From UHGV virus genome UHGV-1351333: a stretch of DNA of 64,000 nucleotides; one strand, written 5' to 3'. The notes below the pieces were generated by a model. That model was given only the letters and a program-made list of their open reading frames with translations. It was not told the origin of the DNA and did not search any database. Position numbers and translations under genes: made by a program. The stretch's first letter is position 1, and every line of letters starts with the position of its first letter. Shown here one piece after another: positions 6,516 through 64,000 of this stretch. The DNA comes from a virus.

Positions 6516-6532
6516 TTTGCAATCATTGCAAA
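6516..6532. promoter_or_regulatory. 7-3-7 inverted repeat TTTGCAATCATTGCAAA
   Basis: Intergenic, upstream of the capsid gene. Followed by TTTTATTGAC. Confidence 0.7.
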
Positions 6533-12535: not shown

Positions 12536-12552
12536 TTTGCAACGATTGCAAA
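12536..12552. promoter_or_regulatory. 7-3-7 inverted repeat, spacer variant TTTGCAACGATTGCAAA
   Basis: Intergenic, 27 nt upstream of the 12579 ATG. Confidence 0.65.
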
Positions 12553-16532: not shown

Positions 16533-16549
16533 TTTGCAATCATTGCAAA
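16533..16549. promoter_or_regulatory. 7-3-7 inverted repeat TTTGCAATCATTGCAAA
   Basis: Between the tape-measure stop and the 16559 ATG. Confidence 0.7.
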
Positions 16550-17376: not shown

Positions 17377-19827
17377 ATGGCATTACGGCGCGTACAGAGA
17401 GGCGAACCTCTGCGTATCGGTCAGATTAACCAATACGCCGAACTTCTTGGCCAAATGACCGGCGGGGGAAAACTCTTCCGGGCCAACAGGACCGGCTACC
17501 AGATGGACCGGGACCTGAACCCCCTGTTCCCGTTCGAGCTGATGGCCCTGGACGCGCAGTCGAGTACCGGAGGAAGCGCAAAAGGCGTGCCGTTGGCGGA
17601 ATCTAAAGACCTGGTCGCTTTTCTTCACCCCGGTTCCGTCACGTTTATCGGTCTGGACGGCATGGCCTCACAGGTGTTTCCCGTCATTAAAAACCCGAAA
17701 TACGCTCCTACGGATTCTCCCGGCGGAGGCAATGAAGATGGGGCCGCGGTCAACACCTGGCCCCGCCCCGGCATCCAGATTGAGCTTGATACGGTGTACG
17801 GCGTTCACCTGTTCGCCAAGCTGGAACGGGTGACGATGCAGATAGGCCGTGACCGGATAATTCAAGTGTCGGTCAAGAAATGGTGCCGTGACCGGACTCC
17901 ATTCATCGGCACGGAAGACGAAATGGACAGTTCCGCTTCGGATGACGAAGATATTATCCGGACGTTCATTCCGTTGTTCCGCCCCACGGAAGACAGCGCA
18001 ATCGAAGGAAACGTTTATGTGGAAAATCTGCATGAAAGCGATTTGATTCTGCCGGATATTCCGCTTGAAGGCGGATCGTCTTCATCTTCGGCGTCCTCTT
18101 CCTCGTCTTCCAGCAGTTCAAGTTCAAGCGGTGGAGTATCGTTCAGCAGCTCTTCATCAAAATCGGAAAGCTCGGAATCCGCGTCTTTTTCTTCCTCGTC
18201 TTCATCGTCAAGAGGCCCGTATATTGACCCGACGCTGATTTCCGTACCGGCGCGGGAAACCGATTCCGGATTCGGCGGCATCTACCGCACGCTGAAAGGC
18301 TTTAACTTCCCGCCCAGCGATGATAAGCCGGGCATGGCGTATATCATCATTTACAGTCCGGTCGAGGCCTGTGATTGGGTAAACTTTTCCACCGCCGGAT
18401 TGGCGGAAACGAAAACGGACCAGCAATGGGAAGGCTATGTCGCCATTGACGATAACGGAAATTGGGATTGCAATGTCATCATCGACGAATTCACAGACCC
18501 TGAAAATACGGGCGCTCACCGATTCAAGGATTTCAAAGTAGGCTACCGGGCAAAAAAACAAAATACGGCTGTCGATATTCTCATTGTTGACCAGTCGCCC
18601 CCGGAAATGTCCTCTTCCTCGTCCTCGTCGGCAGAAAGTTCGTCGTCGGAAGAAAAATATTATTTCCGCTTTGTTCCGAATAACATCACTGTAGACAGCC
18701 GGTGGCAGAAAGTTCAGGGCTATATCCGCACCGATTCCCCCTATGGGTGGAAAATCCCGGAAGATTTTGCAGCGCAGTTTCCTTCCGGAAAATGGGTATC
18801 TATCTCCCCGCTGACCGGGAAGGACCACGACAATTTTGAAGTCACGTTCCAGACGAACGAAGAAGGCGCCTCCCGCGATAATCTGGTGACAGGCTACGCG
18901 CTGACGTCGCGCGGCACGTTGATGCTGACGGCGACCGACACATTAAATGTCACCCAAACCTCGGAAGCTTCTTCTTCCTCATCGAGCAGTTCAAGCAGCT
19001 CGTCAAGTTCAAGTTCTTCTTCGTCTTCCGGTTCGTCGAGTTCATCCCAGGCGGATTGGTTTGAGGTGTTTCCCACGTCGATGGCTTTCGGCGCAGACGG
19101 CAAACCGAAAGATTCCAACAAGGTAAGGTTGCGCGGAACGGTCGAATGGTCAGCTGACACGCAAAGCGCCTGGTGTTCCATGTCTCCCACGTCAGGACCG
19201 GCGCCGGGGGATGCCGGGACGGAAGCCATAATCACCTGCCAGCCTAATGAGGGAGTAAATGGCCGGAGCACGCTCGTCGAGTTTACCGTTAGTTTGAACG
19301 GATCGCCGCAATATTACTATGTCAACGTTATCCAGGAGGGCAACCCTCCCGTGCCTTCATCGGGAAGCGAGTCCTCTTCCTCGGAAGCTTCTTCCGGGGC
19401 CAGCTCGGCCTCGTCAAGCAAGACCGCTATTTTGCCGGTCCGGGGAAAGTTCCTGGGCGTGATGTGCATGGAGTCCCCGGAAACATGGTTTGTGGACTTC
19501 GCCACCGTTCATTTTCCGCTTGGATTGGCGTTAATCGACCGGACGTTCATCGACGTCACCGAACCCGGTTCCATAGCGGTTGTTTCCGCTGTAGATGATA
19601 GGGGCCGCCCCGCGCGGGCATGGCTCCGGCAGGAAGGAAAGTACCTTACCCTGTACGCGAAGCCGCAGGGGTTAAGCCGCGTATTCCGGCCGCAGTCTGT
19701 TATTGTCCAGCTCATCGGCAAGCGTCTGGGCCACCGCGCGCGGTTTCCGGAATTTACGAAAGACCAGTTTATCGCCAATGAAGCGTTTTACGCTAAAGCC
19801 CACCAGCCGGAACCTCCGGAAAAGTAG
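17377..19827 (+). CDS. Tail fibre / receptor-binding protein with two BACON-like domains and four poly-Ser linkers
   Basis: 816 aa. Four Ser-rich linkers. WVSISPLTGKDHDNFEVTFQ...LNVTQ and WCSMSPTSGPAPGDAGTEAIITCQPNEGVNGRSTLVEFTVSLNG...YYVNVIQ match the BACON domain pattern W.S.SP.SG...TV......R.A.IT.. Confidence 0.65.
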   Translation: MALRRVQRGEPLRIGQINQYAELLGQMTGGGKLFRANRTGYQMDRDLNPLFPFELMALDAQSSTGGSAKGVPLAESKDLVAFLHPGSVTFIGLDGMASQVFPVIKNPKYAPTDSPGGGNEDGAAVNTWPRPGIQIELDTVYGVHLFAKLERVTMQIGRDRIIQVSVKKWCRDRTPFIGTEDEMDSSASDDEDIIRTFIPLFRPTEDSAIEGNVYVENLHESDLILPDIPLEGGSSSSSASSSSSSSSSSSSGGVSFSSSSSKSESSESASFSSSSSSSRGPYIDPTLISVPARETDSGFGGIYRTLKGFNFPPSDDKPGMAYIIIYSPVEACDWVNFSTAGLAETKTDQQWEGYVAIDDNGNWDCNVIIDEFTDPENTGAHRFKDFKVGYRAKKQNTAVDILIVDQSPPEMSSSSSSSAESSSSEEKYYFRFVPNNITVDSRWQKVQGYIRTDSPYGWKIPEDFAAQFPSGKWVSISPLTGKDHDNFEVTFQTNEEGASRDNLVTGYALTSRGTLMLTATDTLNVTQTSEASSSSSSSSSSSSSSSSSSSSGSSSSSQADWFEVFPTSMAFGADGKPKDSNKVRLRGTVEWSADTQSAWCSMSPTSGPAPGDAGTEAIITCQPNEGVNGRSTLVEFTVSLNGSPQYYYVNVIQEGNPPVPSSGSESSSSEASSGASSASSSKTAILPVRGKFLGVMCMESPETWFVDFATVHFPLGLALIDRTFIDVTEPGSIAVVSAVDDRGRPARAWLRQEGKYLTLYAKPQGLSRVFRPQSVIVQLIGKRLGHRARFPEFTKDQFIANEAFYAKAHQPEPPEK

Positions 19828-20205: not shown

Positions 20206-20330
20206 ATTGACCCGTGGGGTTTCTTAATGAGAAGGTTTTTCCCTCCCTTTGATGAGAACAATTTAACACTATATTTTAAAAATTGCAAGAGAAAAAAGCA
20301 TAAAAATGATTTTTTATTACATCAAATCAA
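20206..20330 (-). promoter_or_regulatory. Inverted copy of promoter-leader element lacking the palindrome
   Basis: The reverse complement contains ...TCTTGCAATTTTTAAAATATAGTGTTAAATTGTTCTCATCAAAGGGAGGGAAAAACCTTCTC upstream of the 19837-20205 minus gene. Confidence 0.55.
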
Positions 20331-20510
20331 TCGGCAGCAAATAATACGCGCATTTAATCAGCACGATGCCCGCCAGCCAGTTAAGAACCGCCATAACCGG
20401 CATTCGGTGCTTGATGCAGGAAAAAGTGCAAAGCATCATTTGAGCGCCAAGAATCGTTATGGCCCCGGAAATTAAAAATTGCAAAAACATCGATTGGCGG
20501 TCAGCGCGTG

Positions 20511-20843
20511 CTAACGTCTTGAAACTTTTATCGCGGAAGGCTCGTATCGGTACACTATTTCCTCGAAACGCTTTTCAGCATCCGCCAGGGTAGTAAGCGT
20601 CCAGCCATAAGTTCCCCAGGAATTGGGGCCCGGAAGATACTCGTCGCCAATCTGGTGGAACTTCGTAGGGGACGTGACCGTTTGAACCCGCATAACTTCA
20701 TAGCTGATTTGTCCGTGTTTTTCCTGCTCATATATAACCACATTTCCCTGCCTTCGGATTAAACGATAATTAAACCCGTATTTCCGGAACTCGGATTTAA
20801 TTTTTCTTGATGGCGAAGTTATCGGCTTATCTTCCATGCTCAT
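20511..20843 (-). CDS. Hypothetical protein
   Basis: 110-aa minus-strand ORF in a three-gene minus operon. Confidence 0.4.
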   Translation of the reverse strand: MSMEDKPITSPSRKIKSEFRKYGFNYRLIRRQGNVVIYEQEKHGQISYEVMRVQTVTSPTKFHQIGDEYLPGPNSWGTYGWTLTTLADAEKRFEEIVYRYEPSAIKVSRR

Positions 20844-20871
20844 ATTATTTTTTTATTAAAAAAATTGTAGT

Positions 20872-21093
20872 TTAACTCCTAAACTTGCGCCTCACCCGGC
20901 GCATTTTCAGCTCCGAAGAAACAGAAGGAGTATTTGACGCTTTTCGCAGTTCCAGCAACTGGTCCACAGTGCGCTGTAGAGCAATTATGCCTTTCTCCAA
21001 TTCCACTTTATTTATCCGGTAATTATCCGCAATCCAGTCTATATTTCTGGACAGGTTGTGCCGGTGTGCGTCTATGTCCTGCCGCGGCTCCAT
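20872..21093 (-). CDS. Hypothetical protein
   Basis: 73-aa minus-strand ORF. Confidence 0.35.
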   Translation of the reverse strand: MEPRQDIDAHRHNLSRNIDWIADNYRINKVELEKGIIALQRTVDQLLELRKASNTPSVSSELKMRRVRRKFRS

Positions 21094-21114
21094 ACATTTA
21101 TTATTAACTTTTAT

Positions 21115-21143
21115 CCTCAGGGGGGGTAATTCCCCCCCCCTCC
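21115..21143. other. G7-TAATT-C9 homopolymer hairpin
   Basis: GGGGGGGTAATTCCCCCCCCC between two minus-strand genes. Confidence 0.5.
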
Positions 21144-21156
21144 CTGGAAGCAGGAA

Positions 21157-21432
21157 TTAACGCAGATTAAAGATGAACTCGTAGCCGCTGGAATACCGGT
21201 CAATATCTACGGATTCCACATCCATGCAGGTCATATCCCGCACAAGCTGTTTCAAATGGCGCAGGGCTTTTCCGCAGCGGGAATCGTCTTCAATATCCTT
21301 GGGGTCCAGTTTTACCATTATTGAAGTTTGAGAGATAAGAGAAGCGCTGCGTACTTCGCTGCTGCAAAAATACTTTTGAAAGTATTTATTGATTTCTGAA
21401 ACTCCGTTTTGCAGTGTGGTTTTAGTATTCAT
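21157..21432 (-). CDS. Hypothetical protein
   Basis: 91-aa minus-strand ORF immediately downstream of the inverted full promoter-leader element. Confidence 0.45.
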   Translation of the reverse strand: MNTKTTLQNGVSEINKYFQKYFCSSEVRSASLISQTSIMVKLDPKDIEDDSRCGKALRHLKQLVRDMTCMDVESVDIDRYSSGYEFIFNLR

Positions 21433-21567
21433 TTTTTTCTAACAGGTTTTTTGTTTTTTTTCTCTCAGGAGCTTTCCTCCCTTTGATGAATGTAATTTAA
21501 CACTATATCTTAAGAATTGCAAGAGAAAAAAGAGTTTTTCACGAAAAAAATTTGCAATCGTTGCAAA
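21433..21567 (-). promoter_or_regulatory. Conserved promoter-leader element, inverted (full copy) driving minus-strand operon
   Basis: The reverse complement of 21465-21567 reads TTTGCAACGATTGCAAA...CTCTTGCAATTCTTAAGATATAGTGTTAAATTACATTCATCAAAGGGAGGAAAGCTCC. Confidence 0.65.
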
Positions 21568-21620
21568 TTCCGAAAATCAATATTGCTCCTAAAAAATCAA
21601 GCAATTATATTGGCAAAGAC

Positions 21621-22673
21621 ATGATAACCTTAAACCATCTTGGAATATCCCACGCGGTCATCATTGCCTTGCCGGAACGCGCTGAACACGTCGCCCGCCT
21701 GAAAAACTCCATGGCCTCCGGGGGCATTGACCCGGAAAACAGCGTTACCCTGCTTCCCGCCTGGAACGGTCGAGAGCTGTTTCCTCCGAAAAGCTGGAAA
21801 GGGACCCGCGGCGCCTGGGGCTGTGTGCAGTCCCATATCCGGGCCTTGCGGCTTGCGGTTAAAAATAATTGGGAGTCAGTGCTCATCCTAGAGGATGACG
21901 CCCTGTTTTGCCGCAACGCCGCCGCCAGATTGCAGACGCTTTTTTCCGCGCTGCCGAAAGACTGGCGCCTGCTCTATCTCGGAGGGCATCACCAAAACTG
22001 GCCGAAGGAGGTCCACGCGGATTATATCCTGGCCTCCGGCATGACGGCCACTCATGCTTATATCGTCAAACGGGAATCTATCCCGTGGCTTATTAAGCAC
22101 ATCGCCTATTATCCCGACTACGAACAGCAGCAATGGGGAGTTGACCAGCAAATCCGGAACGCCGTTTACCGGGGCGACATCCTCCAATACGCCCCGCGCT
22201 GGAATATCGTAGGACAGCAGCGGCAGGAATACAGCACCATTGCCCATTCCAGGGCCGGGAACCGGGAGCGCTGGTGGGAGCATTCTCAAAATGACCAGTT
22301 CCGCCTGCTTCCGCTTCTGCTGCTGCGGGAGCCGCTAACCGTGGAGGACGTTGACGGGCTTGAGGAACTGGTGGACGTCGCCCCCGAAAAAAGCGTCGAA
22401 TGCCTTTTGGAGAAAACAGAAGATATGGCCGGCGCCATCATTGAGGCGCTTTCCTGCAGCGCGCGGGGGGCATTCAGCCATCGGCGCGTCCCTGCCCTGT
22501 ACTATACTGACCGTAAAGCCGCGGACAGGTGCGCCCGCCTATGGTCCGCGGAATGCCTGTTTGCTGATGTTGACGATTCCGAACAAACCAGGAAATCGCT
22601 TATTGCCGCCCTGCGCCGCATTGTCGACTATGCGGAAAATCCGGACATGAACCCGGACGTGAACAATGATTAA
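21621..22673 (+). CDS. Glycosyltransferase family 25-like (LPS glycosyltransferase-like)
   Basis: AVIIALPERAEHVARL...WKGTRGAWGCVQSHIRALRL...VLILEDDALF...WRLLYLGG matches the GT25 pattern VINL.R..dR......WkG..GalGC.lSH......LILEDD...dw.i.yLg. First ATG in ORF 21552-22673. Confidence 0.6.
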   Translation: MITLNHLGISHAVIIALPERAEHVARLKNSMASGGIDPENSVTLLPAWNGRELFPPKSWKGTRGAWGCVQSHIRALRLAVKNNWESVLILEDDALFCRNAAARLQTLFSALPKDWRLLYLGGHHQNWPKEVHADYILASGMTATHAYIVKRESIPWLIKHIAYYPDYEQQQWGVDQQIRNAVYRGDILQYAPRWNIVGQQRQEYSTIAHSRAGNRERWWEHSQNDQFRLLPLLLLREPLTVEDVDGLEELVDVAPEKSVECLLEKTEDMAGAIIEALSCSARGAFSHRRVPALYYTDRKAADRCARLWSAECLFADVDDSEQTRKSLIAALRRIVDYAENPDMNPDVNND

Positions 22674-23733
22674 CTTTCTTCGCTACACTGCTATGGATTA
22701 TTTATTTCCGCATTATTTCGACCGGATTGTCGTCATCAACCTTACTAAAAACCCCGAACGGTTTGCCCGCATTGCCGATGAATTGAAGTATAAATGCCTG
22801 GCGGGGCCTGATGATATTGTCAGGCATGAAGCCGTGCACGGGGATTCCATGCCGCATCCGGCGTGGTACAGGGCCGGAAACGGGGCGTGGGGGTGCTTGT
22901 CCAGCCATATCGAGGCGCTGGAAGACGCCTGGAACACCGGAAGCGAGCACACGCTGATTATCGAGGACGATGCCGTATTCGCCAATGACCTTTTGACGCG
23001 GTTCCCGGAAACCATGAAGGAAGTTCCGAAAGAATACGGGCAGTTGTACCTTGGGGGACAGCACCAGCAGGCCCCGGAGGCCCTCAGCGATACTTTGTGG
23101 CGCGGCACGTCTGTCAATCGGACGCATTGCTACGCCGTTACCCGGAAGTTCATTCCGGAGATTCTCGCCCATATCATGGATTGGGATACCCATATCAAGG
23201 CTGCCGGAAACCCGCTCCACATCGACCACACGCTGGAAATCGGGCATCAGCGCAGATACTGGCCCGTATTTTGCCCCCGGTTCTGGTTTGCCGGTCAGGG
23301 GGAAAACCAATCTGACATCAACGGCAGGCCCCAGCGGGAAATGTGGTGGGAGTACTCCGTGAAACAACAGCATTTAGAGCTTCCTTTGCTTGTGTTACGG
23401 ACCGCCGACATGCCGGAACACGTTAAAGACCTGGCGTTTGTCGGCTGGCCGTCGGATTTGGACGCCCGCGGCGTCAACAGGAAAATCGAAGAGGCTAAAA
23501 AAGACAAGGCTACCCTGTTGCGGGAAATCAGCTGGCTGGCGTATGTAGGATTCCAGCACCACAGCCTTCCGGCGGTTTATCTTCCGGAGCCGGAACCGGT
23601 TTCCGCATTGCAGCGCCTGTGGTCCGGTGAGGTTATCGACACGGCGCATGCGGATGATGCGGATATCCACCGGATGCGCCGCATCCTGGAATTCGCCGAT
23701 AATCCGGAAATGCTGAAATATAGATTCCGGTAG
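22666..23733 (+). CDS. Glycosyltransferase family 25-like, tandem paralogue
   Basis: RIVVINLTKNPERFARI...AWYRAGNGAWGCLSSHIEALE...LIIEDDAVF...GQLYLGG. Same domain order and similar C-terminal tail (ADNPEML vs AENPDMN) as the upstream gene. Confidence 0.6.
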   Translation: MINFLRYTAMDYLFPHYFDRIVVINLTKNPERFARIADELKYKCLAGPDDIVRHEAVHGDSMPHPAWYRAGNGAWGCLSSHIEALEDAWNTGSEHTLIIEDDAVFANDLLTRFPETMKEVPKEYGQLYLGGQHQQAPEALSDTLWRGTSVNRTHCYAVTRKFIPEILAHIMDWDTHIKAAGNPLHIDHTLEIGHQRRYWPVFCPRFWFAGQGENQSDINGRPQREMWWEYSVKQQHLELPLLVLRTADMPEHVKDLAFVGWPSDLDARGVNRKIEEAKKDKATLLREISWLAYVGFQHHSLPAVYLPEPEPVSALQRLWSGEVIDTAHADDADIHRMRRILEFADNPEMLKYRFR

Positions 23734-24379: not shown

Positions 24380-24395
24380 CAAAAATTTTCCTCAA

Positions 24396-24412
24396 TTTGC
24401 AATCATTGCAAA
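24396..24412. promoter_or_regulatory. 7-3-7 inverted repeat TTTGCAATCATTGCAAA
   Basis: Directly after the spanin-candidate stop, at the left edge of the AT-rich iteron region. Confidence 0.7.
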
Positions 24413-24505
24413 CCGGAAAAACCGGAGATTCAGGACCGTAATCCTACGGTCTTTTTTATTTGTCAATACTGTTTTTTACGCTTTTATAACTTATTAAACC
24501 TCATA

Positions 24506-24852
24506 CAGTTATAAATAATATGCACTGAGAAATCGCTAGTTTATTCATTTGTTATTCACTATTAACGAGTTATAAATAATTTGCACTTTTGAAAGTTCAG
24601 GGCATTCATAAGTATTTGCGTATCAGGCAGTTATAAACGCGATAAACCTGGAAAAACACGCTAAATTCTCATTTTACGTAAATATAACCGGCTAAGCTTC
24701 ATGCAGTTATAGATATTATGCCCTTTCACCGAAGTGCATTTATTTTGTAAATTACTGAAAGTGAAAGGGTTATAACTGCGGCCAAAGCGCGGAAACCTCA
24801 ATTTTTGCCTTTATAAGTGGCTGAACTGCATTTAGTTATAAATAATTTGCAC
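24506..24852. repeat. Iteron array (consensus CAGTTATAAATAAT[AT]TGCAC) in AT-rich non-coding region
   Basis: Direct copies at 24506, 24567, 24628 (degenerate) and 24704, with 61, 61 and 76 bp spacing. Inverted partial copy at 24779-24788. Best copy at 24834-24852. Confidence 0.7.
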
Positions 24853-25052
24853 TCTGAGAGTGCATTAATATAAATATATAATAATATTCGTTCCTCATAT
24901 TATTATACATTTACATTTCCCGTCCTGACCTAAAGGTCAGTACGTCGCCTGGGCTGTTCCGCCCAGGCACTCTGGGACAGGGACAGAGAGAGGGTTCCAG
25001 CCTGTGAAATTTCCGCTACTGTTCCGGCGGATTTCATGTTACGGTTCCGGAG

Positions 25053-25403
25053 ATGAAAAACCTTCCGCAAATCATCAAGGACAGTTGGCGCGATATTATC
25101 GCTTTTTTGTTCATCGGAATTTTCCTTTCCGTCGGGGTGGAATATCTGATTCGGCTTTCGGTCATCATGGATGTTACCGGGGCAGCTTCCTTCATCGCCT
25201 TGTTGCAGGGCTTCACCAAGTTTGCCGGGGCCAATCTCTGCGCATGGCTGCTGGGAGCCAATGTGGCCTTCCCGTATATTTCCCGTTGGGCCAGATTCGA
25301 CTTCAATGCGACCTGGCGCACGATGGAGGGGTTCCGGAAAGTCCAATGCTTCCTCGCGGTTGCCATCGGGGAATTGCTCATGGCCGCCATCTGCTTTGCC
25401 TGA
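25053..25403 (+). CDS. Holin candidate
   Basis: 116 aa with about three hydrophobic segments. Ends 10 nt before the lysozyme gene. Confidence 0.4.
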   Translation: MKNLPQIIKDSWRDIIAFLFIGIFLSVGVEYLIRLSVIMDVTGAASFIALLQGFTKFAGANLCAWLLGANVAFPYISRWARFDFNATWRTMEGFRKVQCFLAVAIGELLMAAICFA

Positions 25404-25412
25404 TACCGCCCC

Positions 25413-26105
25413 ATGAACGGTCAGAGTTTAATTGGTTTGGCCCTTGCGACCCTGTCCGCGTTTTTCGCCTGCGGGGATATGCCGGCTTCCGGTCTGGTCC
25501 TAAGTGACCGGGCCGTAGATATGATTATCCGGTACGAGACCGGAGGGAAGGCGTACTACGTGAAAAAGCTCGTTCGGCCTACATGGCCCGGAGGGGATAG
25601 CGGAGTGACCATCGGCATTGGTTACGACTTGGGATATTACTCGTCGGCGCAAATCCGTTCCGACTGGTCCTCCCTGCCGGAAAAAGACCTCCGGCTGCTC
25701 TGCACCGTAGCCGGATTGAAGCGTCAGGCCGCCCGTGCGTCTGTTAGCCGGGTGCGGTCTGTCACGGTTCCGTGGGAGTTGGCGTTGGACGTGTACCGAA
25801 AAAAGACGATTCCCGCCTATGCGTCCACGACTAAAACTGCGTTTCAGGGGCTGACCTTAACTCATCCCCATGTGCAGGGGGCTATGGTGTCTTTGGTGTA
25901 TAATCGGGGCGCTTCCATGTCAGGGGCCAGCCGGAAAGAGATGCGGGACTGCCGGGATGACATTAAAGCCGGGCAGGTGAAGCGGGTTCCCGCCCATATC
26001 CGAAGCATGAAACGGCTTTGGATTGGGAAGGGCCTGAATGGGCTGTTAATCCGCCGGGAAGAAGAAGCCTGCCTGGTTGAACTGGGGCTGAAAGAAAAAA
26101 ATTGA
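25413..26105 (+). CDS. Endolysin, phage-lysozyme-like, possible SAR type
   Basis: IRYETGGKAYY...GVTIGIGYD fits the phage lysozyme E...D...TIG.G pattern. N-terminal Ala/Gly/Leu-rich weakly hydrophobic segment SLIGLALATLSAFFACG is compatible with a signal-anchor-release domain. Confidence 0.6.
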   Translation: MNGQSLIGLALATLSAFFACGDMPASGLVLSDRAVDMIIRYETGGKAYYVKKLVRPTWPGGDSGVTIGIGYDLGYYSSAQIRSDWSSLPEKDLRLLCTVAGLKRQAARASVSRVRSVTVPWELALDVYRKKTIPAYASTTKTAFQGLTLTHPHVQGAMVSLVYNRGASMSGASRKEMRDCRDDIKAGQVKRVPAHIRSMKRLWIGKGLNGLLIRREEEACLVELGLKEKN

Positions 26106-26149
26106 TAAAATGTCTTGCAATTTTTTTGTGTTGTGGGTATAGTTTTCTC

Positions 26150-26359
26150 ATGCCTTACGATAAACACACGTTAGAACTTACTCTGGAAGAGCTTACGATG
26201 TTTGCCTCGAAGAATCCGAACTCTGATGCCGGATTTGTCGAAGCGTTGAATGTGGTTCGTGATTTTCAGCGTCAAGGGAAGCCTGTGGTTATTCTCTGGC
26301 CCAGCCGGAAGCCGGTGGAGGTCCATGAGAGGGTCGAAAGGCGCCAAGAAGCGGAATAA
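26150..26359 (+). CDS. Small hypothetical protein
   Basis: 69 aa. Upstream TTGCAAT...TATAGTTT promoter-like motif. Confidence 0.3.
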   Translation: MPYDKHTLELTLEELTMFASKNPNSDAGFVEALNVVRDFQRQGKPVVILWPSRKPVEVHERVERRQEAE

Positions 26360-26366
26360 TCGAAAA

Positions 26367-26383
26367 TTTGCAATCATTGCAAA
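26367..26383. promoter_or_regulatory. 7-3-7 inverted repeat TTTGCAATCATTGCAAA
   Basis: Intergenic, 34 nt upstream of the AAA+ ATPase ATG. Confidence 0.7.
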
Positions 26384-28090: not shown

Positions 28091-28168
28091 TTAGCGTGGT
28101 GATTTTTTATCCTGCATTTTTTCAATATTTGTCTTGCAATTCTTAAATTAAAAGGGTATATTACTGAC

Positions 28169-28810
28169 ATGAGCAATGATTTAAGCACTCTTGATACCGT
28201 CACCGGGGAAATGCAGACGCTGGTGAATGGGTATGTTAAAGTGATTTTATTCAAGGTTCAGCTTCCGGGGCCGGGAACGCTGTACAAGGAAGATGGCATT
28301 TTCCGCAACAACGTTCCGGGCGTGAACCGCATCGGGTTCCCTGGGTCTATCGCCTCCCTGCAAAATGGGAGGCCGGAAGTGTGCGGAACGGTTTTTTCCG
28401 GGAAGTACAGCCTGACCCCAGGTTCTTTCCTTAAAATTTTTGTCAAGGCGCATCGGCGCAGGTCATTTCCGGAATCGGCCAGCCTGTTCATCAGGATGCG
28501 CCCTTCGGCCGCCTTGCGGCGTATCACTGTTTCCTGCCCGGAAGACCCTAAAGCCACCATTTCCGAGTTCAGCATTACCGGACGCTTCGACCTGGTAAAA
28601 CCCATTGAGGCCATTGCCGCCGGGTGTAGAATCCCTGAGCAGTTCAAGCTTGGGTACGCTCCCACAGTGGTAAACCGTTTGATGCGGTTTAGCGTTCTGT
28701 CTCCGGAAACAGCCACCCGGACCGTAGTCCGCACGGCTTCCGGGGAAGAAAAAGAAGTCATTGTCGCCAAGAGGCGGCGGCGTTTGGGCGGGGTACGTTC
28801 CCACTCCTGA
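28169..28810 (+). CDS. Hypothetical protein
   Basis: 213-aa ORF between the AAA+ gene and the DUF1257-like gene. Upstream solitary TTGCAAT promoter element. Confidence 0.4.
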   Translation: MSNDLSTLDTVTGEMQTLVNGYVKVILFKVQLPGPGTLYKEDGIFRNNVPGVNRIGFPGSIASLQNGRPEVCGTVFSGKYSLTPGSFLKIFVKAHRRRSFPESASLFIRMRPSAALRRITVSCPEDPKATISEFSITGRFDLVKPIEAIAAGCRIPEQFKLGYAPTVVNRLMRFSVLSPETATRTVVRTASGEEKEVIVAKRRRRLGGVRSHS

Positions 28811-29342: not shown

Positions 29343-29359
29343 TTTGCAACGATTACAAA
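29343..29359. promoter_or_regulatory. Degenerate 7-3-7 inverted repeat TTTGCAACGATTACAAA
   Basis: One mismatch in the right arm. 11 nt upstream of the DUF2997-like ATG. Confidence 0.5.
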
Positions 29360-35643: not shown

Positions 35644-35764
35644 TTTGCAATGATTGCAAATTTTTTTCGTGAACAGGATTTTTTATCTTGCAATTTCCAT
35701 TTTTTAGTGATATAAAAAAGCCATCACAGAGCGAAAGCCCTGAATCAATAAAAACACCACTATT
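35644..35764 (+). promoter_or_regulatory. Palindrome plus downstream TTGCAAT promoter element (non-conserved leader)
   Basis: TTTGCAATGATTGCAAA at 35644-35660, TTGCAAT at 35688-35694, then a unique leader to the 35765 ATG. Confidence 0.6.
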
Positions 35765-37774: not shown

Positions 37775-37928
37775 TTTGCAACGATTGCAAATTTTTTTCG
37801 TGAAAAACTCTTTTTTATCTTGCAATTTATAAAAAACAATGCTAAATTACATTCATCAAAGGGAAGGAAAAACCTTCCCGCACAGCTAAAAAACCTGAAA
37901 GTTAAATTAAAAAAAGGAACTAAAAAAA
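37775..37928 (+). promoter_or_regulatory. Conserved promoter-leader element (palindrome, TTGCAAT box, TAAATTAC box, leader hairpin)
   Basis: TTTGCAACGATTGCAAA, then ...TCTTGCAATTTATAAAAAACAATGCTAAATTACATTCATCAAAGGGAAGGAAAAACCTTCCC... before the ATG at 37929. Leader hairpin GGGAAGG/CCTTCCC. Confidence 0.7.
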
Positions 37929-39786: not shown

Positions 39787-39899
39787 AATTTTTTTCATTT
39801 TTTTCTTGCAATAAAATAATGTCATGCTTTACTTTCAATGTTCCCATCATGGAACATCAATAAAAACAACACTCCCATTGGAGCTATTAAAAAAATAAA

Positions 39900-42951: not shown

Positions 42952-42968
42952 TTTGCAACGATTGCAAA
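42952..42968. promoter_or_regulatory. 7-3-7 inverted repeat TTTGCAACGATTGCAAA
   Basis: Intergenic, 34 nt upstream of the 43002 ATG. Confidence 0.65.
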
Positions 42969-46781: not shown

Positions 46782-46919
46782 TTTGCAATCATTGCAAATT
46801 TTTTTCTCAAAAAAGTTCTTTTTTCTCTTGCAATTTATAAAATATAATGTTAAATTGTTTTCATCAAAGGGAGGGAAACTCCTGAGAGAAAAACAAAAAA
46901 CCTGAACATTATTAATACC
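46782..46919 (+). promoter_or_regulatory. Conserved promoter-leader element (full copy)
   Basis: TTTGCAATCATTGCAAA...TCTTGCAATTTATAAAATATAATGTTAAATTGTTTTCATCAAAGGGAGGGAAACTCCTGAGAG..., then ATG at 46920. Confidence 0.7.
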
Positions 46920-47652: not shown

Positions 47653-47682
47653 TAAAAAATCTTCGGTGGTATTATACAGGTT

Positions 47683-47730
47683 CTGCCTCCTTTTTCGGCA
47701 TTTCGTTGCCGGGAAAGGGGGCAGTTTTTT
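47683..47730 (+). terminator. Intrinsic terminator
   Basis: CTGCCTCC...GGGGGCAG followed by TTTTTTG, after the 47224-47652 gene. Confidence 0.55.
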
Positions 47731-47897
47731 GCGTCAATTTGTAGCGGTATTTTTCCTTTTAAGACTGCGCACAACTATATGTTGCGGCTATTTTCGCGAA
47801 CGGTCGACCCCGGAAAAATAGAGACTTGAACCGGCTTGGCGGTAAGTTAAGATGCCGAAGGTTAAACACTAGTTTGGCTGTCTTTATCTATCTTTTG

Positions 47898-47940
47898 CCC
47901 CTAATCCGGAGTGATGCCCGGATTAGGGGATTTTTTATTT
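47898..47940 (+). terminator. Intrinsic terminator
   Basis: CCCCTAATCCGG-AGTGATGC-CCGGATTAGGGG followed by ATTTTTTATTT. Confidence 0.8.
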
Positions 47941-47945
47941 CTCAA

Positions 47946-48080
47946 TTTGCAATCATTGCAAATTTTTTTCGTGAAAAACTCTTTTTTCTCTTGCAATTCT
48001 TAAGATATAGTGTTAAATTACATTCATCAAAGGGAGGAAAGCTCCTGAGAGAGAAAAAACAAAAAACCTGTTAGAAAAAA
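47946..48080 (+). promoter_or_regulatory. Conserved promoter-leader element (full copy)
   Basis: Same architecture as 46782-46919. Leader hairpin GGGAGG-AAAG-CTCCT. ATG at 48081. Confidence 0.7.
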
Positions 48081-48554: not shown

Positions 48555-49160
48555 ATGAAACCGATTGCTCAACTCCAAATGACCGATTTGCTGCACGACG
48601 CCGATTGCCTTTCAGAAGAGGCGTACCGTTCCCGGCTGCGCTACCTTGGCAGGCTGGTCGATTCGCCCCGGAACAGCTCTATGGCGCGAAAAGTGCGGAA
48701 CACGAGCGCTAAACGCTGGAACCGTTTGATTCAGCTTGTGCATAATGGTTATATTGCCTCCGACGATTCCCTGGACCGCCACAGCCGCAGCTGGCTGGAA
48801 CCGGCGCTAGGCTATACGGCGCTGCACGTTTTCATTTCCGCCGGAAGAAGGCGGCTGTTGTTTGCCCAGATTATGATGGACGAGCTTTTTTCCGGGCGGG
48901 AGCCTGCCGGTTTTGCCGAACTTATCGCTCTTGTAGCCAAAGGGGTGGCCTTCGGACGCTGTAGTCCCGGAATCCGGTACGAACTGCCCCCGAAAATCAG
49001 GCAGGAGCTGGAATTGAACGCCGGAAAGGGGTGCGGGACGAGCGTCCGGAAAAATCTGGAAGACAGCATTCGGCATCTGGACGGCATCAGCCGGAAGTGC
49101 ACCGGGGAACCTGTCATTACTCACATGCTTTACTATGGCCTCCGATTGTTCTCCTGCTAA
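48555..49160 (+). CDS. Hypothetical protein
   Basis: 201 aa. Its 3' end overlaps the HsdM-like ORF by 26 nt in another frame. Confidence 0.4.
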   Translation: MKPIAQLQMTDLLHDADCLSEEAYRSRLRYLGRLVDSPRNSSMARKVRNTSAKRWNRLIQLVHNGYIASDDSLDRHSRSWLEPALGYTALHVFISAGRRRLLFAQIMMDELFSGREPAGFAELIALVAKGVAFGRCSPGIRYELPPKIRQELELNAGKGCGTSVRKNLEDSIRHLDGISRKCTGEPVITHMLYYGLRLFSC

Positions 49161-49905
49161 GCCTGCCGCGGACCATTCGGCGAAACCGAGTTTCTATTCG
49201 GTATTGGAAAAACTGCCGCTGGACCACCTGCGCTCGTCCGAACGGTTTTTTCTGTGGCTGGAATTCGTTTTTTCCGTCATGTCCGGAACGCCCCTGGATT
49301 CGTCCGCCGCTGAAAAAATGGGCAGGGGCAGGAGCAGTTACGAGACCGTTCAGCGGGGATTCCTGGACTGCATTGCGCTTCTTGGTGACGAGATGGAGCG
49401 GAGGCCGTATGAAGACCTGCTGGGCGGGTACCATGAAATGCTGAACAGCCGGATAGACCGGACCGTAAACGGTCAATTTTATACTCCGACAAACATTTGC
49501 CGCATGATGGCCCGCATTACCGTATCAGAGCAGTTTGCGGAAAACCTGAAACCGGGGGAAGTCATATCGCTAAGCGAACCTTCTTGCGGCTCCGGGCGGA
49601 ATGTGCTTGCCGCGGCGGAAGTCCTTGGCCGCCACCGCTCCAAAATGAGAGTAACCTGCACCGATATTGACATCCGGGCGTGCTGGATGTGCTACATCAA
49701 CCTGACCATGTGGGGGATTCCGGCAACAGTCGTCCACGGAGATTCCCTGCGCCTGAAAGAATGGGGGCGCTGGGTCAACATGTTCTGGCAGCTTGGGGAG
49801 GCGGAAAGAAAGCAGCAGCTTAAATCAAAAAAAATCATGGATGCGATTAAAAACCTTCAATTTGCCGAATCGGACTCCCCGGCTTTTCCCCGAAGCCGAA
49901 ATTGA
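49135..49905 (+). CDS. HsdM-like N6-adenine methyltransferase-like protein lacking NPPF/Y catalytic motif
   Basis: GQFYTPTNICRMM (gamma-class motif X), EPSCGSGRNVL (motif I), CYINLTMWGI and HGDSL blocks as in HsdM. No NPP[FY] motif before the stop. Confidence 0.5.
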   Translation: MASDCSPAKPAADHSAKPSFYSVLEKLPLDHLRSSERFFLWLEFVFSVMSGTPLDSSAAEKMGRGRSSYETVQRGFLDCIALLGDEMERRPYEDLLGGYHEMLNSRIDRTVNGQFYTPTNICRMMARITVSEQFAENLKPGEVISLSEPSCGSGRNVLAAAEVLGRHRSKMRVTCTDIDIRACWMCYINLTMWGIPATVVHGDSLRLKEWGRWVNMFWQLGEAERKQQLKSKKIMDAIKNLQFAESDSPAFPRSRN

Positions 49906-52498: not shown

Positions 52499-52628
52499 TT
52501 TGCAACGATTGCAAATTTTTTTCGTGAAAAACTCTTTTTTCTCTTGCAATTTTTAAAATATAATGCTAAATTACATTCATCAAAGGGAGGGAAACTTCCT
52601 GAAATTAAAAAACCGAAAATTAAAGATA
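52499..52628 (+). promoter_or_regulatory. Conserved promoter-leader element (full copy)
   Basis: TTTGCAACGATTGCAAA...TCTTGCAATTTTTAAAATATAATGCTAAATTACATTCATCAAAGGGAGGGAAACTTCCTG... ATG at 52629. Confidence 0.7.
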
Positions 52629-53003: not shown

Positions 53004-53020
53004 TTTGCAATGATTGCAAA
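53004..53020. promoter_or_regulatory. 7-3-7 inverted repeat TTTGCAATGATTGCAAA
   Basis: Intergenic, 40 nt upstream of the 53060 ATG. Confidence 0.65.
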
Positions 53021-54162: not shown

Positions 54163-54208
54163 AACCCCGGAAGTGGCTTCCCTCTCTTCCGGGGTTTTAT
54201 CTTTTTTC
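54163..54208 (+). terminator. Intrinsic terminator
   Basis: AACCCCGGAA...TTCCGGGGTT followed by TTATCTTTTTTC, after the 53060-54139 gene. Confidence 0.75.
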
Positions 54209-54218
54209 ATCCTTTCAA

Positions 54219-54354
54219 TTTGCAATCATTGCAAATTTTTTTCTCAAAAAAGTTCTTTTTTCTCTTGCAATTTATAAAAAACAATGCTAAATTACATTCA
54301 TCAAAGGGAGGAAAGCTCCTGAGAGAAAAAAAACAAAAAACCTGAAACAAGACA
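54219..54354 (+). promoter_or_regulatory. Conserved promoter-leader element (full copy)
   Basis: Nearly identical to the 46782 and 47946 copies. ATG at 54355. Confidence 0.7.
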
Positions 54355-59219: not shown

Positions 59220-59316
59220 TTTGCAATCATTGCAAATTTGCAAGCCATGGCTAAATAGTTTCTTTTTTTTCTTGCAAAATGTTATATATGCGTTTCTTTG
59301 TATAGATTAAACAGCC
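59220..59316 (+). promoter_or_regulatory. Palindrome plus adjacent third TTTGCAA half-site and promoter-like boxes
   Basis: TTTGCAATCATTGCAAA followed directly by TTTGCAAGCC, then ...TTCTTGCAAAATGTTATATATG. At the left border of the AT-rich island, upstream of the ParB-like gene. Confidence 0.6.
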
Positions 59317-59856
59317 ATGGAAAATAATAAAATTATTTATTTATCGCCTGATAAACTTATTGAGTATGATAATAATACCCGTCTTCATGATGAGGAGCAG
59401 ATTAACCAAATTTGTAGGTCTATTCGTGAATTTGGATTTACAAATCCTATTCTTATCGATGAAAACAATATTATTATTGCTGGACACGGACGTAAAGCCG
59501 CCGCAATTAGGCTTGGGCTAAAAACAATCCCCGCTATCCGATTATCTGGATTAACGGATAAGCAAATAAAGGCACTGCGTATTGCCGATAATAAGCTTGC
59601 ACTTAATGCGGGCTGGGATGATGAGCTATTAAAGTTTGAGATTTTAAGTCTGCAAGAGAGCGATTTTGACTTAGAGTTATTAGGCTTCTCCGTGGATGAA
59701 ATTGACAGCTTTCTTGTCGCAGAGGAAGAAATAAAAGAGGAAGGAGAATTAAAATGCGAAGAAGCTAAAGAAAAAATACCAAATGATTTTAAAACTGTAG
59801 AAGAAACAAAACTAGTTCATAGATGCCCGCGATGCAATTATGAATTTAATGACTAA
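59317..59856 (+). CDS. ParB-like nuclease domain protein
   Basis: IEYDNNTRLHDEEQINQICRSIREFGFTNPILIDENNIIIAGHGRKAAAIRLGLKTIP matches the ParB N-terminal (ParBc) domain. Lies in an island of about 30% GC. Confidence 0.6.
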   Translation: MENNKIIYLSPDKLIEYDNNTRLHDEEQINQICRSIREFGFTNPILIDENNIIIAGHGRKAAAIRLGLKTIPAIRLSGLTDKQIKALRIADNKLALNAGWDDELLKFEILSLQESDFDLELLGFSVDEIDSFLVAEEEIKEEGELKCEEAKEKIPNDFKTVEETKLVHRCPRCNYEFND

Positions 59857-59876: not shown

Positions 59877-60941
59877 ATGGAGTATAAGATTCCGACAGTT
59901 TTAGAAATCAAAGAGCGTCTTGCCAAGGAGGGGCCATTATTTAATGTTGTTTCATTGTTTGCCGGTGGCGGAGGAAGTTCATGCGGCTATAGAATGGCCG
60001 GAGCCAAGGTACTCGCAATAAATGAATTTATACCTGAAGCAAGAAATACTTATCATGCTAATTGGCCAGATACTACAATCTTTCCTTGCGACGTGCGAGA
60101 CTTAGACGCAAATGATATTTTAAGAGCTATTAATATGGCGCCGGGTGAACTTGATGTACTTGACGGGTCTCCACCCTGTTGCGGGTTTTCTTCTTCCGGA
60201 AAAAGAAGTAAAGGATGGGGGCAAAATAGGAGATATTCTGACTCAGCCCAGGTAGGAGTTGAAACTCTTTTTTTTGAGTACATCCGAATTTTGCGAGAAT
60301 TAAAGCCTAAATGTTTTATCGCTGAAAATGTTGCTGGATTAGCACAAGGCGTATCACGCGGTTATCTTAATGAATTTCTAAGAGCATTCTCCGCATCTGA
60401 TTATATATGTAAAGCAAAAATCCTTAATGCACAGTATCTTGGTGTACCACAGTGCCGACATAGACTTATTTTTGTCGGTGTTAGAAAAGACTTATGGCGT
60501 TCAGAGTTTGAAAATAAAACGCATCCGAAACCGTTTAGCTATTTAATACCGCTCAAAGATGCTTTTCGCGGTATTATAAATACGTCAGAAGAGCTTGCGC
60601 AGGTTGATATATCAAAATACGTGATTTATCAACGTCTTATAAAGTTGAAAAAGGGGAAATCTGACTCTGAAAGGTTTAATCTGGTAAAAGCTGATGATAA
60701 TAGGCCGTCTCCGTGCATAACGGCGTCCACTGGACGTTTAGGGTGCGCTTGTGCCTGTCATTGGGACAATAGAGCTTTTACACTTAAAGAGCTTAAAAGA
60801 ATAACAAGCGTACCAGACGATTATATATTAACAGGAACATATAGCCAGCAGGTTGAACGGCTCGGACGTATGGTCCCACCCTTGATGATGAAAGCAGTCG
60901 CAGCAAATCTTTATACTAATATTTTAAAGGAGTTAAAATGA
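59877..60941 (+). CDS. DNA cytosine-5 methyltransferase
   Basis: Motif I FAGGGGSSCGY, motif IV GSPPCCGFSSSG (PC catalytic dipeptide), motif VI IAENVAGL. Lies in the AT-rich island. Confidence 0.8.
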   Translation: MEYKIPTVLEIKERLAKEGPLFNVVSLFAGGGGSSCGYRMAGAKVLAINEFIPEARNTYHANWPDTTIFPCDVRDLDANDILRAINMAPGELDVLDGSPPCCGFSSSGKRSKGWGQNRRYSDSAQVGVETLFFEYIRILRELKPKCFIAENVAGLAQGVSRGYLNEFLRAFSASDYICKAKILNAQYLGVPQCRHRLIFVGVRKDLWRSEFENKTHPKPFSYLIPLKDAFRGIINTSEELAQVDISKYVIYQRLIKLKKGKSDSERFNLVKADDNRPSPCITASTGRLGCACACHWDNRAFTLKELKRITSVPDDYILTGTYSQQVERLGRMVPPLMMKAVAANLYTNILKELK

Positions 60942-61594
60942 AAATTCCAAAGAGCTGGACATTTAAAGATAACCAAGTCGCAAAGAAATTTGACTCTCAT
61001 GTACGAGAGCAGTTGCCGTGGTATAACATTCTTACAAATCTTGTGGCTATTGTAGCTAAACATTACATGCCGGAGAATGGCATTGGATATGATATTGGCG
61101 CAAGTACAGGCAACCTCGGCAATGTACTTAAAGATATTATAAAATCCAGAAGATTTAACTGGATAGGAATCGATAATTCTGAGCAAATGAAAGCGTATTA
61201 TCGTGCTCCCGGAAAGCTTGAAATTTGTGATGCTATAGATTACGATTTTCAATCTTTCGATATTGCAGTCTGTTTTTTAGTCCTTATGTTCTTTCCTAAA
61301 GATAAGCGAGAACTCTGGTTAAAAAATCTTATTGAAAAAGCAAAGTTTGGAGCTGCGATAATTATCGTAGATAAAGAAGAATTAAAGGGTGGAATTTTAT
61401 CGACAGCTTTATACCGAGCAACAGTTTTAAGTAAGTTAGAATATACGACTGCTGAGAAAATTCTTGAAAAAGAATCATCTCTTTGCGGTATTCAAAACCC
61501 ATTGCCTCGTGATTTTATGCTGCAATTTGGCGCAACAGAGATTTTCAGGTTTGGTGATTTTGCCGCATGGGTTATCGAGAAAAAATGGCATTAG
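60938..61594 (+). CDS. Class I SAM-dependent methyltransferase, CmoA-like layout
   Basis: WTFKDNQVAKKFDSHV...LPWY..., YDIGASTGNLG (motif I), WIGIDNSEQM, VCFLVLMFFP...AAIIIVDK parallel CmoA blocks (WTFDERVAEVFPDM, YDLGCSLG, IAIDNSPAM, LNFTLQFL...LVLSEK). SD-like AAAGGAG upstream. Confidence 0.5.
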   Translation: MKIPKSWTFKDNQVAKKFDSHVREQLPWYNILTNLVAIVAKHYMPENGIGYDIGASTGNLGNVLKDIIKSRRFNWIGIDNSEQMKAYYRAPGKLEICDAIDYDFQSFDIAVCFLVLMFFPKDKRELWLKNLIEKAKFGAAIIIVDKEELKGGILSTALYRATVLSKLEYTTAEKILEKESSLCGIQNPLPRDFMLQFGATEIFRFGDFAAWVIEKKWH

Positions 61595-63922: not shown

Positions 63923-64000
63923 TTTGCAATCATTGCAAATTTTTTTTCGTGAAAAACTCTTTTTCCTCTTGCAATTTATAAAAAACAATGCTAAATTGTT
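63923..64000 (+). promoter_or_regulatory. Conserved promoter-leader element (truncated by window end)
   Basis: C8 tract then TTTGCAATCATTGCAAA...TCTTGCAATTTATAAAAAACAATGCTAAATTGTT. Confidence 0.65.

Follow-up and report, generated by a model that had tools for sequence, protein, structure and literature searches.

Positions 46782–46919 (plus strand) of UHGV-1351333, a 64,000-nucleotide (nt) stretch of DNA that is analysed here as a whole and referred to as the window, carry one of a set of closely similar sequences, each located directly in front of a different gene. The window is a fragment of a tailed-phage genome from the human gut, and the locus raises the question of what these repeats are and what they provide to the genes behind them. 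The repeats are real and occur far beyond chance. In our judgement, it is probable (roughly 0.6) that they are promoter-plus-leader cassettes similar to the promoter-early stem-loop (PeSL) cassettes, in a new phage lineage in which the design is supplemented by a standardised leader with a 5' hairpin and, as a separate element, by a palindrome found genome-wide.

Repeated cassettes in front of small genes

A first-pass annotation made from the sequence had listed eight copies, and all of them are present. By our count, seven are complete, one is cut by the window end and there is an additional, diverged ninth copy; most of the nine sit at 46–54 kb of the window. The promoter core TCTTGCAATTNWTAARA matches nine times in the window, where 0.18 matches are expected, and the looser pattern TTGCAA-N17-TANNNT matches 11 times (0.6 expected), with 10 of the 11 pointing at a downstream gene. 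The six full-length copies that bear the palindrome are 83–98% identical over ~105 columns.

The reference cassette (46782–46919) extends from the palindrome to the base before a GTG codon (46920) that opens a 70-amino acid (aa) open reading frame (ORF). Further plus-strand copies are located at 37775–37928, upstream of a 110-aa ORF (37929) and with the hairpin GGGAAGG/CCUUCCC at 37861–37879; at 47946–48080, upstream of an 88-aa ORF (48081), with a hairpin at 48032–48046 and a GC-rich terminator on the upstream side (47898–47929); at 52499–52628, upstream of a 124-aa ORF (52629), with a hairpin at 52584–52600 and a palindrome that abuts the upstream TAA stop codon; and at 54219–54354, upstream of a 130-aa ORF (54355), with a hairpin at 54306–54320 and a GC-rich hairpin plus T run on the upstream side (54165–54207). 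The plus-strand copy at 63923–64000 is cut by the window end, and near-identical contigs continue it with GGGAAGG/CCUUCCC and an 84-aa ORF. Two copies are on the minus strand: that at 21433–21567 precedes a 91-aa ORF (21432–21157), contains a hairpin at 21481–21467 and is 98% identical to the 47946 copy, and that at 20206–20300 consists of promoter and leader in front of a 122-aa ORF (20205–19837), with the hairpin GGGAGGG/CCUUCUC at 20247–20229. The palindrome, which had been ascribed to all eight copies, is missing from the latter copy, originally delimited as 20206–20330. The diverged ninth copy (35644–35764, plus strand) comprises a palindrome, T7, TTGCAA-N17-TATAAA and a hairpin around GAAA; this hairpin (35726–41) contains one A·C mismatch, and relatives carry AGGGC-GAAA-GCCCU at the same place.

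The cassette-driven ORFs encode 70–130 aa (426 aa behind the ninth copy). No function matches were obtained for them in Pfam or PHROGs, in agreement with the earlier statement that the cassettes precede different small genes of no recognisable family, and BLASTP detected no paralogy among them. These approximately ten small genes are natural candidates for early, host-directed or anti-defence functions. The only hint of such functions comes from the related genome OGTL01000081.1, for which a published supplement (PMC8008677) predicts gene 17 to be an anti-CRISPR candidate with a score of 0.92.

Each cassette is composed, in order, of a T-rich tract, TCTTGCAAT (−35), a 17-nt spacer, TGnTAAATT (−10) and a leader starting with AUCAAAGGGAG; a leader hairpin of 4–7 bp is then followed by an A-rich tract that contains no Shine-Dalgarno site and by the start codon. 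In the reference cassette, a T6 tract and CTC run into the −35 hexamer TTGCAA (46828–46833; whole element 46819–46833, plus strand), and the extended −10 sequence TGtTAAATT lies at 46848–46856 (plus strand), which places the predicted start at A46863, 7 nt past the hexamer. A conservation profile taken over 83 unique cassettes of the phage group showed at least 90% conservation of the T tract together with TCTTGCAATT, of TG.TAAATT and of TTCATCAAAGGGAG. Conservation is much lower in both spacers, in the loop and 3' arm of the hairpin and in the A-rich tract.

Two predicted promoters of the same type have no cassette leader. At 26115–26152 (TTGCAA-N17-TATAGT) and 28134–28171 (TTGCAA-N17-TATATT), both on the plus strand, the ATG codons at 26150 and 28169 begin exactly 7 nt past the −10 hexamer, a spacing that is kept in relatives and supports both the −10 assignment and a start site 7 nt downstream of it. 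The genes at 26150 and 28169 are thus probably leaderless, and a start at ATG 26150 shortens ORF 26102–26359 to 26150–26359. With a start at this distance, the cassette transcripts would begin at the A of CATCAAAGGG, which lies at 46863, 48026, 52579, 54300, 37855, 21487 and 20253, and the hairpin would begin at +5 to +7. A further plus-strand unit (39806–39899) combines the same −35 with an unrelated leader that contains the hairpins GUUCC-CAUCAU-GGAAC (39840–39855) and CUCC-CAUU-GGAG. In addition, among relatives of the palindrome-free cassette (L001 4448, L135 341 and others), the leader has at +4 a G run that ranges from GAAGGG to G8 (CATCGGGGGGGGAGAG), a length-variable homopolymer right at the predicted transcript start.

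In the explanation that we favour, the T-rich tract, the −35 hexamer TTGCAA, the 17-nt spacer and the extended −10 TGnTAAATT would form a promoter for the main RNA polymerase of the host. The G run of the fixed, purine-rich initial transcribed sequence AUCAAAGGGAG would pair with a variable downstream pyrimidine stretch, giving a 4–7 bp hairpin within ~6 nt of the RNA 5' end, and the unstructured A-rich tract would serve as a translation initiation region that dispenses with a Shine-Dalgarno site, as do most start codons across this phage, which likewise have A-rich sequence in front. Whichever small gene lies behind a cassette would thus become a unit that is insulated and well expressed. Recombination and gene conversion would keep the copies alike; RecA and RuvC are encoded by the phage. 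The copies would also be the points at which crossovers insert, replace, move or invert genes. The palindrome would be a separate module, often placed between the previous stop codon and the promoter.

The cassettes had also been proposed to act as recombination substrates, a proposal now borne out by rearrangement breakpoints located at cassettes and by block conversion inside an orthologous cassette. Similarity to relatives breaks off at cassette edges, namely at 46906, 52619/52535, 54346 and 20234/21568. After 46906, OGTL01000081.1 carries an extra gene and cassette, and the gene after 54346 is replaced in relatives. The three-gene module at 20206–21567 lies on the minus strand between the tail genes and glycosyltransferases of the window; in at least five relatives, this module (20234–21568) is co-oriented and located in the early region, inside the 52.5-kb cassette, and the crossover falls in the 64-nt promoter/leader core. 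The module represents a cassette-bounded translocation and inversion. Furthermore, two contigs with 0–2 differences per 100 nt in the flanking gene show nine changes in a ~50-nt block of the orthologous cassette, and the alternative block matches other cassettes. Since near-identical genomes differ by block swaps within a cassette, the cassettes recombine. Among the window copies, cassette sub-blocks occur in all combinations (four-gamete reading of the alignment), and the cassette-rich region is 71–78% identical to relatives, as compared with 82–93% elsewhere.

The published precedent for this cassette design, which the first-pass annotation missed, is the PeSL, described in T4-type phages (Arbiol et al. 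2010, PMC2839356; Comeau et al. 2014, PMC4122927). PeSLs are also characterised by experimentally demonstrated promoter and terminator activity and by mini-circles that the cassettes delimit. As in the PeSLs, a stop codon, an AT-rich region, a host-type promoter, a putative stem-loop and a start codon form a repeated intergenic unit; the units are concentrated upstream of small, homologue-free genes in a variable region; and the breakpoints of insertions, deletions and replacements between related phages lie at the units. The host-type character of the promoter is judged by sequence, with eight of the 12 Escherichia coli consensus positions matched. Unlike the PeSLs, the present cassettes occur in an unrelated phage lineage with a probable host of an unrelated phylum, number ~10 rather than ~50 and contain no Shine-Dalgarno site. 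Their conserved unit also reaches into the transcript, where it includes the fixed 5' sequence and the 5' hairpin; this second hairpin, located in the leader, lacks a U tract. The upstream stem-loop corresponds to an invariant AU-rich palindrome that also stands alone at 10 other gene boundaries. If the interpretation holds, gene shuffling by mobile promoter cassettes, a concept from T4-type coliphages, would extend to an unrelated, uncultured gut phage of a medically interesting host. The promoter, the 5' hairpin and the Shine-Dalgarno-free leader could also become parts for the genetics of Akkermansia, the probable host, for which few tools exist.

A palindrome at gene boundaries

The reference cassette begins with the 17-bp palindrome TTTGCAATCATTGCAAA (46782–46798), the centre of which lies at about −73 from the predicted start and which is followed by T7 (46799–46805). 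The sequence TTTGCAA-N3-TTGCAAA (TTTGCAA-YSA-TTGCAAA) occurs at 18 sites in the window, where 0.04 are expected. All 18 are at gene boundaries and 10 of them have no cassette, so that the palindrome, which had gone unnoticed as such, is an element separate from the cassette and distributed genome-wide. It is found upstream of eight of the nine cassettes counted (seven of the original eight and the 35644 copy), and 163 perfect copies are present in 451 kb of the relatives. Its hexamer equals the cassette −35 hexamer TTGCAA.

Most sites lie 0–28 nt past the upstream stop codon, and six stand-alone palindromes are 9–39 nt before the next ATG. The stand-alone sites are at 2470–2486 (17 nt beyond a stop codon, with the next ATG 179 nt away), 6516–6532 (3 nt beyond a stop codon, with the capsid gene 156 nt away), 12536–12552 (in a 62-nt gap of the tail module), 16533–16549 (14 nt after the tape-measure stop codon, 9 nt before the next ATG), 24396–24412 (16 nt beyond a stop codon and bordering a non-coding repeat region of 1 kb), 26367–26383 (33 nt before the ATG of the AAA ATPase gene), 42952–42968 (followed by T7 and by no promoter, 33 nt before an ATG) and 53004–53020 (abutting a TAA stop codon, 39 nt before an ATG). 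A degenerate form, TTTGCAACGATTACAAA, at 29343–29359 lies 10 nt before an ATG and has the same mismatch in relatives. After the terminase gene, a palindrome plus a third TTGCAA hexamer (59220–59243) is located upstream of the gene for a ParB-like protein. A fourth hexamer follows 34 nt further on in the same upstream region (59220–59316), which could reflect autoregulation or coincidence.

The DNA-operator and RNA-hairpin readings of the palindrome are about equally likely. On the former, which we regard as possible rather than probable, a dimeric protein of the phage or host would bind TTGCAA-N3-TTGCAA at ~22 gene boundaries and would also touch the −35 hexamer. Such a protein would turn early promoters off or on and form a roadblock at other places, and the sites would constitute a global operator network. 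Comparable networks exist: the KorB O_B palindromes of plasmid RK2 and the stoperators of cluster A mycobacteriophages are short sequences repeated 12–30 times across a replicon. They share with the present sites the location in short intergenic gaps, often by stop codons or upstream of promoters at various distances. Stoperators, in contrast to the palindromic site described here, have an asymmetric sequence and are found in temperate phages that possess a repressor, and neither an integrase nor a repressor was seen in the window; the phage is apparently lytic.

Besides their excess over chance, several features of the sites suit a DNA-binding protein. Arms with at least 90% invariance enclose a centre triplet that varies, a distance of 10 bp separates the centres of the half-sites, and TTGCAAT is common to the palindrome and the −35 region. 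The distance between these two is 25–29 nt, mostly 26–27, even though the spacer sequence differs. GC-rich terminators (47898, 54165) upstream of the palindrome would leave it mostly untranscribed at those places. The 21-mer form AATTTGCAATCATTGCAAATT, which includes AA/TT flanks, gave only three chance matches in 185,579 bacterial species genomes, a scan in which shorter forms were not included. The motif in this form is therefore not a host motif, and the matches reveal no prophage. Binding of TTGCAA-N3-TTGCAA by a helix-turn-helix dimer has been documented in archaea (PMC2715240).

A cognate binding protein, on the other hand, was not identified by Pfam, PHROGs or a PDB sequence search, which sets the sites apart from the KorB and stoperator systems: Pfam and PHROGs revealed no regulator, sigma factor or repressor among ~70 ORFs, and the window and the next 10 kb yielded no regulator, sigma factor or RNA polymerase. 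The cassette-type promoters at 20290, 26115, 28134 and 39806 stand as units that have no palindrome, and the six sites 9–39 nt before an ATG leave no room for a promoter. In one lineage, the variants break the DNA symmetry and keep G·U pairing in the sense RNA, and the centre triplet is strand-biased.

These last points fit better the reading of the palindrome and its T7 as the stem-loop of a true PeSL, that is, a weak intrinsic terminator or attenuator, or a protective RNA hairpin at 3' ends, which would end the upstream unit before the next promoter. Its uniformity would then be due to common descent and gene conversion, and block conversion between cassettes was seen directly. We regard this reading, too, as possible rather than probable. 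The palindrome lies 0–28 nt past stop codons even where the next gene is 156–1000 nt away, T7-8 follows all 10 cassette-linked copies, and the RNA hairpin has a folding energy of −6.5 to −12 kcal/mol, with z down to −4.8. The A-to-G changes of the variant lineage keep U·G pairs in the sense strand only, and one pair has been fully compensated to C-G. However, with only two G-C pairs in a 7–9 bp stem, the palindrome does not have the make-up of an intrinsic terminator, though the phage has canonical ones; the scan that found terminators at 47683 and 47898 did not list it. At two cassettes, GC-rich canonical terminators that had previously been overlooked precede it (47898–47929 by scan, 54165–54194 by sequence reading) and would make it redundant. 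The palindrome is absent from the convergent junction at 19827/19837, the U tract is missing at eight of the 18 sites, and G13-to-A variants give C·A mismatches in the sense strand. Nor would a plain hairpin keep its sequence while the flanks diverge to 71–78% identity.

A bolder form of the operator idea, which we consider somewhat less likely again, is that an as yet unrecognised protein of the phage or of Akkermansia binds TTGCAA-N3-TTGCAA at the ~22 boundaries and competes with RNA polymerase at the TTGCAA −35 hexamer or recruits it there, so that palindrome and −35 would form one regulatory code. If true, the entire programme of the phage, in which neither an RNA polymerase nor a sigma factor nor a known regulator was found, would be timed by this code. 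An apparently lytic gut phage would then possess a global switch of the KorB or stoperator kind, to which the cassette hairpin would be the counterpart at the RNA level. The palindrome network offers a concrete starting point for understanding the organisation of gene expression in a phage that apparently lacks transcription factors of its own.

Other assignments of the palindrome were rejected. A sigma-54 site is off by 2 nt in spacing (sequence reading). At the stand-alone sites, no consistent −10 is found at the distance required for a −35 element or a class II activator site (sequence reading). An N4-type hairpin promoter would call for a virion or single-subunit polymerase, none of which was found in the window or the next 10 kb. 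In a Fur-family 7-1-7 box, position 8 would not vary between T and C, as it does in ~40% of the sites. Avoidance of TGCA does not drive the variants, since TGCA is not depleted (0.95 of expectation). As for the ParB-like protein (59317–59856) as a binder, only its N-terminal domain matches, and its gene sits with methylases.

In contig ERZ1673702.282 (loci L134, L167, L187 and L205), seven of 10 palindromes contain TTGCGA in place of TTGCAA, often in both hexamers, and one is fully compensated (TTCGCAA...TTGCGAA). This suggests that TTGCGA is a lineage-specific variant spreading among palindrome sites.

Pairing in the cassette leader

In the reference cassette, the leader hairpin GGGAG-GGAAA-CUCCU occupies 46869–46883 (plus strand), with an outer U-A/C-G closure possible between 46864–46865 and 46886–46887. 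The ~40 distinct leaders of the phage group have ~12 different 3' arms (CUCC(U/C), CUUCCU, CCUCCC, CCUUCCC, CCUUCUC, CCCUCC(U/C), CUCUCCU, UCCCU, GCCCU, CCCU and CCUU) and loops of 4–10 nt, the loop sequence and stem length varying freely. The hairpin nevertheless stays paired across copies, as had been stated: when the downstream segment was shuffled, 38 of 39 distinct leaders proved to fold better than 95% of the shuffled versions, and 97% of the cells are paired in a covariance-model alignment of 37 distinct leaders, compared with 51–86% when the 3' partner is slid by 1–3 columns. The stem starts at +5 to +7 from the predicted start, and outer U2-A/C3-G pairs are possible in approximately half of the variants. 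Two further observations were counted in favour of a real 5' structure: the unrelated leader at 39840 likewise opens with a hairpin, and the helix extends to nucleotide 2 in poly-G variants (AAA to GGG).

The E. coli ompA leader and the T7 gene 10 leader provide 5'-terminal stabilising stem-loops in highly expressed mRNAs. The cassette leaders share with them a short hairpin near the predicted 5' end followed by an unstructured initiation region, and the T7 gene 10 leader also has a GGGAGA start that pairs with a downstream pyrimidine run. They differ in that the start site is a predicted one here and that ~6 nt are unpaired in many copies. The hairpin would most likely protect the 5' end against 5'-end-dependent decay and keep the A-rich initiation region insulated. 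The fixed 5' arm is probably constrained for another reason, as a purine-rich initial transcribed sequence; the T7 A1 and T5 N25 transcripts start in a similar manner.

The compensatory changes noted in the first-pass annotation, by contrast, were too strong a description. In the model-fitted alignment of the 37 leaders, a two-sided change was found in one pair (two cells), and the contrast of GGGAAGG/CCTTCCC with GGGAGGG/CCTTCTC that had been adduced consists of one-sided A-U/G·U changes. Most differences between leaders exchange C and U opposite a G or alter the length of an arm, and the best two-sided case, AGGGA/UCCCU versus AGGGC/GCCCU, comes from orthologues of the 35644 copy. A covariation analysis had been recommended, and strict covariation proved not significant in the leader alignments. 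This weakness is explained by the 5' arm, a near-invariant G-rich run that pairs with C or U alike. A naive alignment (MAFFT and RNAalifold) yielded only three pairs and missed the hairpin because loop and arm lengths vary. The proposal of a selected RNA hairpin is plausible, given the pairing that persists over ~12 3' arms and loops of 4–10 nt, but weaker than had been claimed, as formal covariation is not significant.

A number of findings weigh against the interpretation of the repeats as PeSL-like cassettes with a structured leader. The promoter activity and the start site are predictions; the hexamers agree with the E. coli consensus at only eight of 12 positions, and a consensus promoter scan did not list the cassette promoters. 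In PeSLs, the stem-loop is a GC-rich terminator, whereas the palindrome is AU-rich and folds in the cassette context at −6.5 kcal/mol, and the canonical terminators before the palindrome at two cassettes reduce the likeness further. As for the leader, the shuffle controls are not clearly exceeded: 38 of 500 shuffles attained the covariation score and 58 of 500 the percentage of paired cells, and for the 7-bp class the figure is 260 of 500. A G-rich arm pairs easily with any C/U-rich stretch, and the stem is mostly lost in one leader variant (−1.2 kcal/mol). Protective 5' hairpins in E. coli tolerate 2–4 unpaired nt, a limit exceeded by the ~6 unpaired 5' nt of many copies.

It is unlikely that the leader hairpin serves as a protein-recognition RNA, such as a boxB/nut-like antitermination site or the target of a phage nuclease acting on GGAG, instead of as a passive 5' structure. 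Such a role would fit the short stem with A-rich loops (GAAA, GGAAA, GAAAG and AAAAA) just 3' of each predicted early promoter, the possible terminators that separate the cassette units and the invariance of the 5' arm, which exceeds the need of pairing. As in the lambda nut sites (boxA and boxB), a small hairpin with a purine-rich loop is located in the leader of predicted early transcripts, upstream of terminator-like hairpins. Unlike in nut sites, however, neither loop nor stem is conserved, no boxA-like partner was noted and no N-like protein was identified. The variable loop length weighs against a DNA operator as well as against a loop-reading protein such as lambda N, which would not tolerate the variation in loop length (4–10 nt), loop sequence and stem length, and several variants (GGGC, GGGAAA) lack the GGAG core. 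Rfam gave no match at gathering thresholds over the whole window, and at a relaxed E-value for 46.7–48.2 kb only matches far below the family thresholds. On the basis of the free loops and the Rfam result, the leaders were not assigned to the lambda-type nut/boxB class. A scan of viral contigs with the leader pattern TTCATCAAAGGGARG was dropped as unspecific, as it returned mostly chance Shine-Dalgarno-like matches.

Least likely of all, and by a wide measure improbable, is that the similarity is a trace of recent duplication and the hairpin an incidental pairing of a G run with pyrimidines that has no function of its own, for although the covariation statistics are not significant and gene conversion can hold copies alike in the absence of selection, ~12 distinct 3' arms and loops all restore in-register pairing, slid registers pair far less often, the promoter, 5' arm and pairing persist next to flanks that have diverged to 71–78% identity, and an unrelated leader has a 5' hairpin of its own.

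The phage, its probable host and other sequence features

The window represents about three-quarters of a tailed-phage genome of ~83 kb and has a GC content of ~53%. It codes for a tape-measure protein, a capsid protein, the large terminase, a BACON-domain protein, DnaB, PolA and an AAA ATPase, and further for RecA, RuvC, RNase H, a lysozyme, several DNA methylases and the ParB-like protein. A megablast search of INPHARED with the window returned no matches among cultured phages. The nearest cultured phages share 32% (terminase) and 40% (AAA ATPase) protein identity, so that no annotated relative of use is available. Close relatives are contigs of 82–92 kb from human-gut metagenomes and IMG/VR, and one protein of the phage is indexed in 80 blocks of an assembly collection; the phage is apparently widespread in the human gut.

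In the supplement of Benler et al. 2021 (PMC8008677), the relative OGTL01000081.1 is unclassified, and its host according to spacers of clustered regularly interspaced short palindromic repeats (CRISPR) is NZ_CP015409. This accession (CP015409) is the genome of Akkermansia muciniphila YL44, which has a GC content of 55.7%, and because of this assignment A. muciniphila is probably also the host of the present phage. A literature search found neither published Akkermansia promoters nor any paper on the TTGCAA palindrome motif. Membership in the Flandersviridae was not assigned: the layout is alike, but OGTL01000081.1 is listed as an unclassified 'Outlier' (PMC8008677).

Two adjacent genes for family-25 glycosyltransferase-like proteins are located behind the tail module (21552–23733), and relatives encode sulfotransferase- and PAPS-reductase-like proteins in the region past the window. 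These proteins may have functions in the modification of the host surface or of DNA. GATC is nearly absent from the window (nine observed, 212 expected) and CTAG is depleted (11 observed, 44 expected). A C5 methylase (59877–60941), another methyltransferase (60938–61594) and an N6-methylase-like protein (49135–49905) are encoded in the window.

Ten C/G runs of 7–11 nt were found (12250, 21120–21140, 44609, 47175, 51754, 57687, 62471, 63168 and 63913), eight of which are at least 8 nt long, as compared with ~3 expected in the window. Several are within ORFs, and a C11 run directly precedes the terminase ATG. These runs could be slippage-prone tracts or assembly-sensitive sites.

Two non-coding stretches also deserve mention. 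That at 24400–24930 (~0.5 kb) is part of a ~1-kb stretch between genes (24380–25412) and contains four to five direct repeats ending in AGTTATAAATAATWTGCACT (24474–24853), as well as an AT-rich inverted repeat (24867–24917); it could represent an iteron-containing replication origin or a group of clustered late promoters of the TATAAATA type. The other, a gene-free stretch of 293 nt at 47653–47945, has a strong GC-rich terminator towards either end (47683–47724 and 47898–47929), has no match in Rfam and folds with z = −5.2, and it may encode a phage small RNA.

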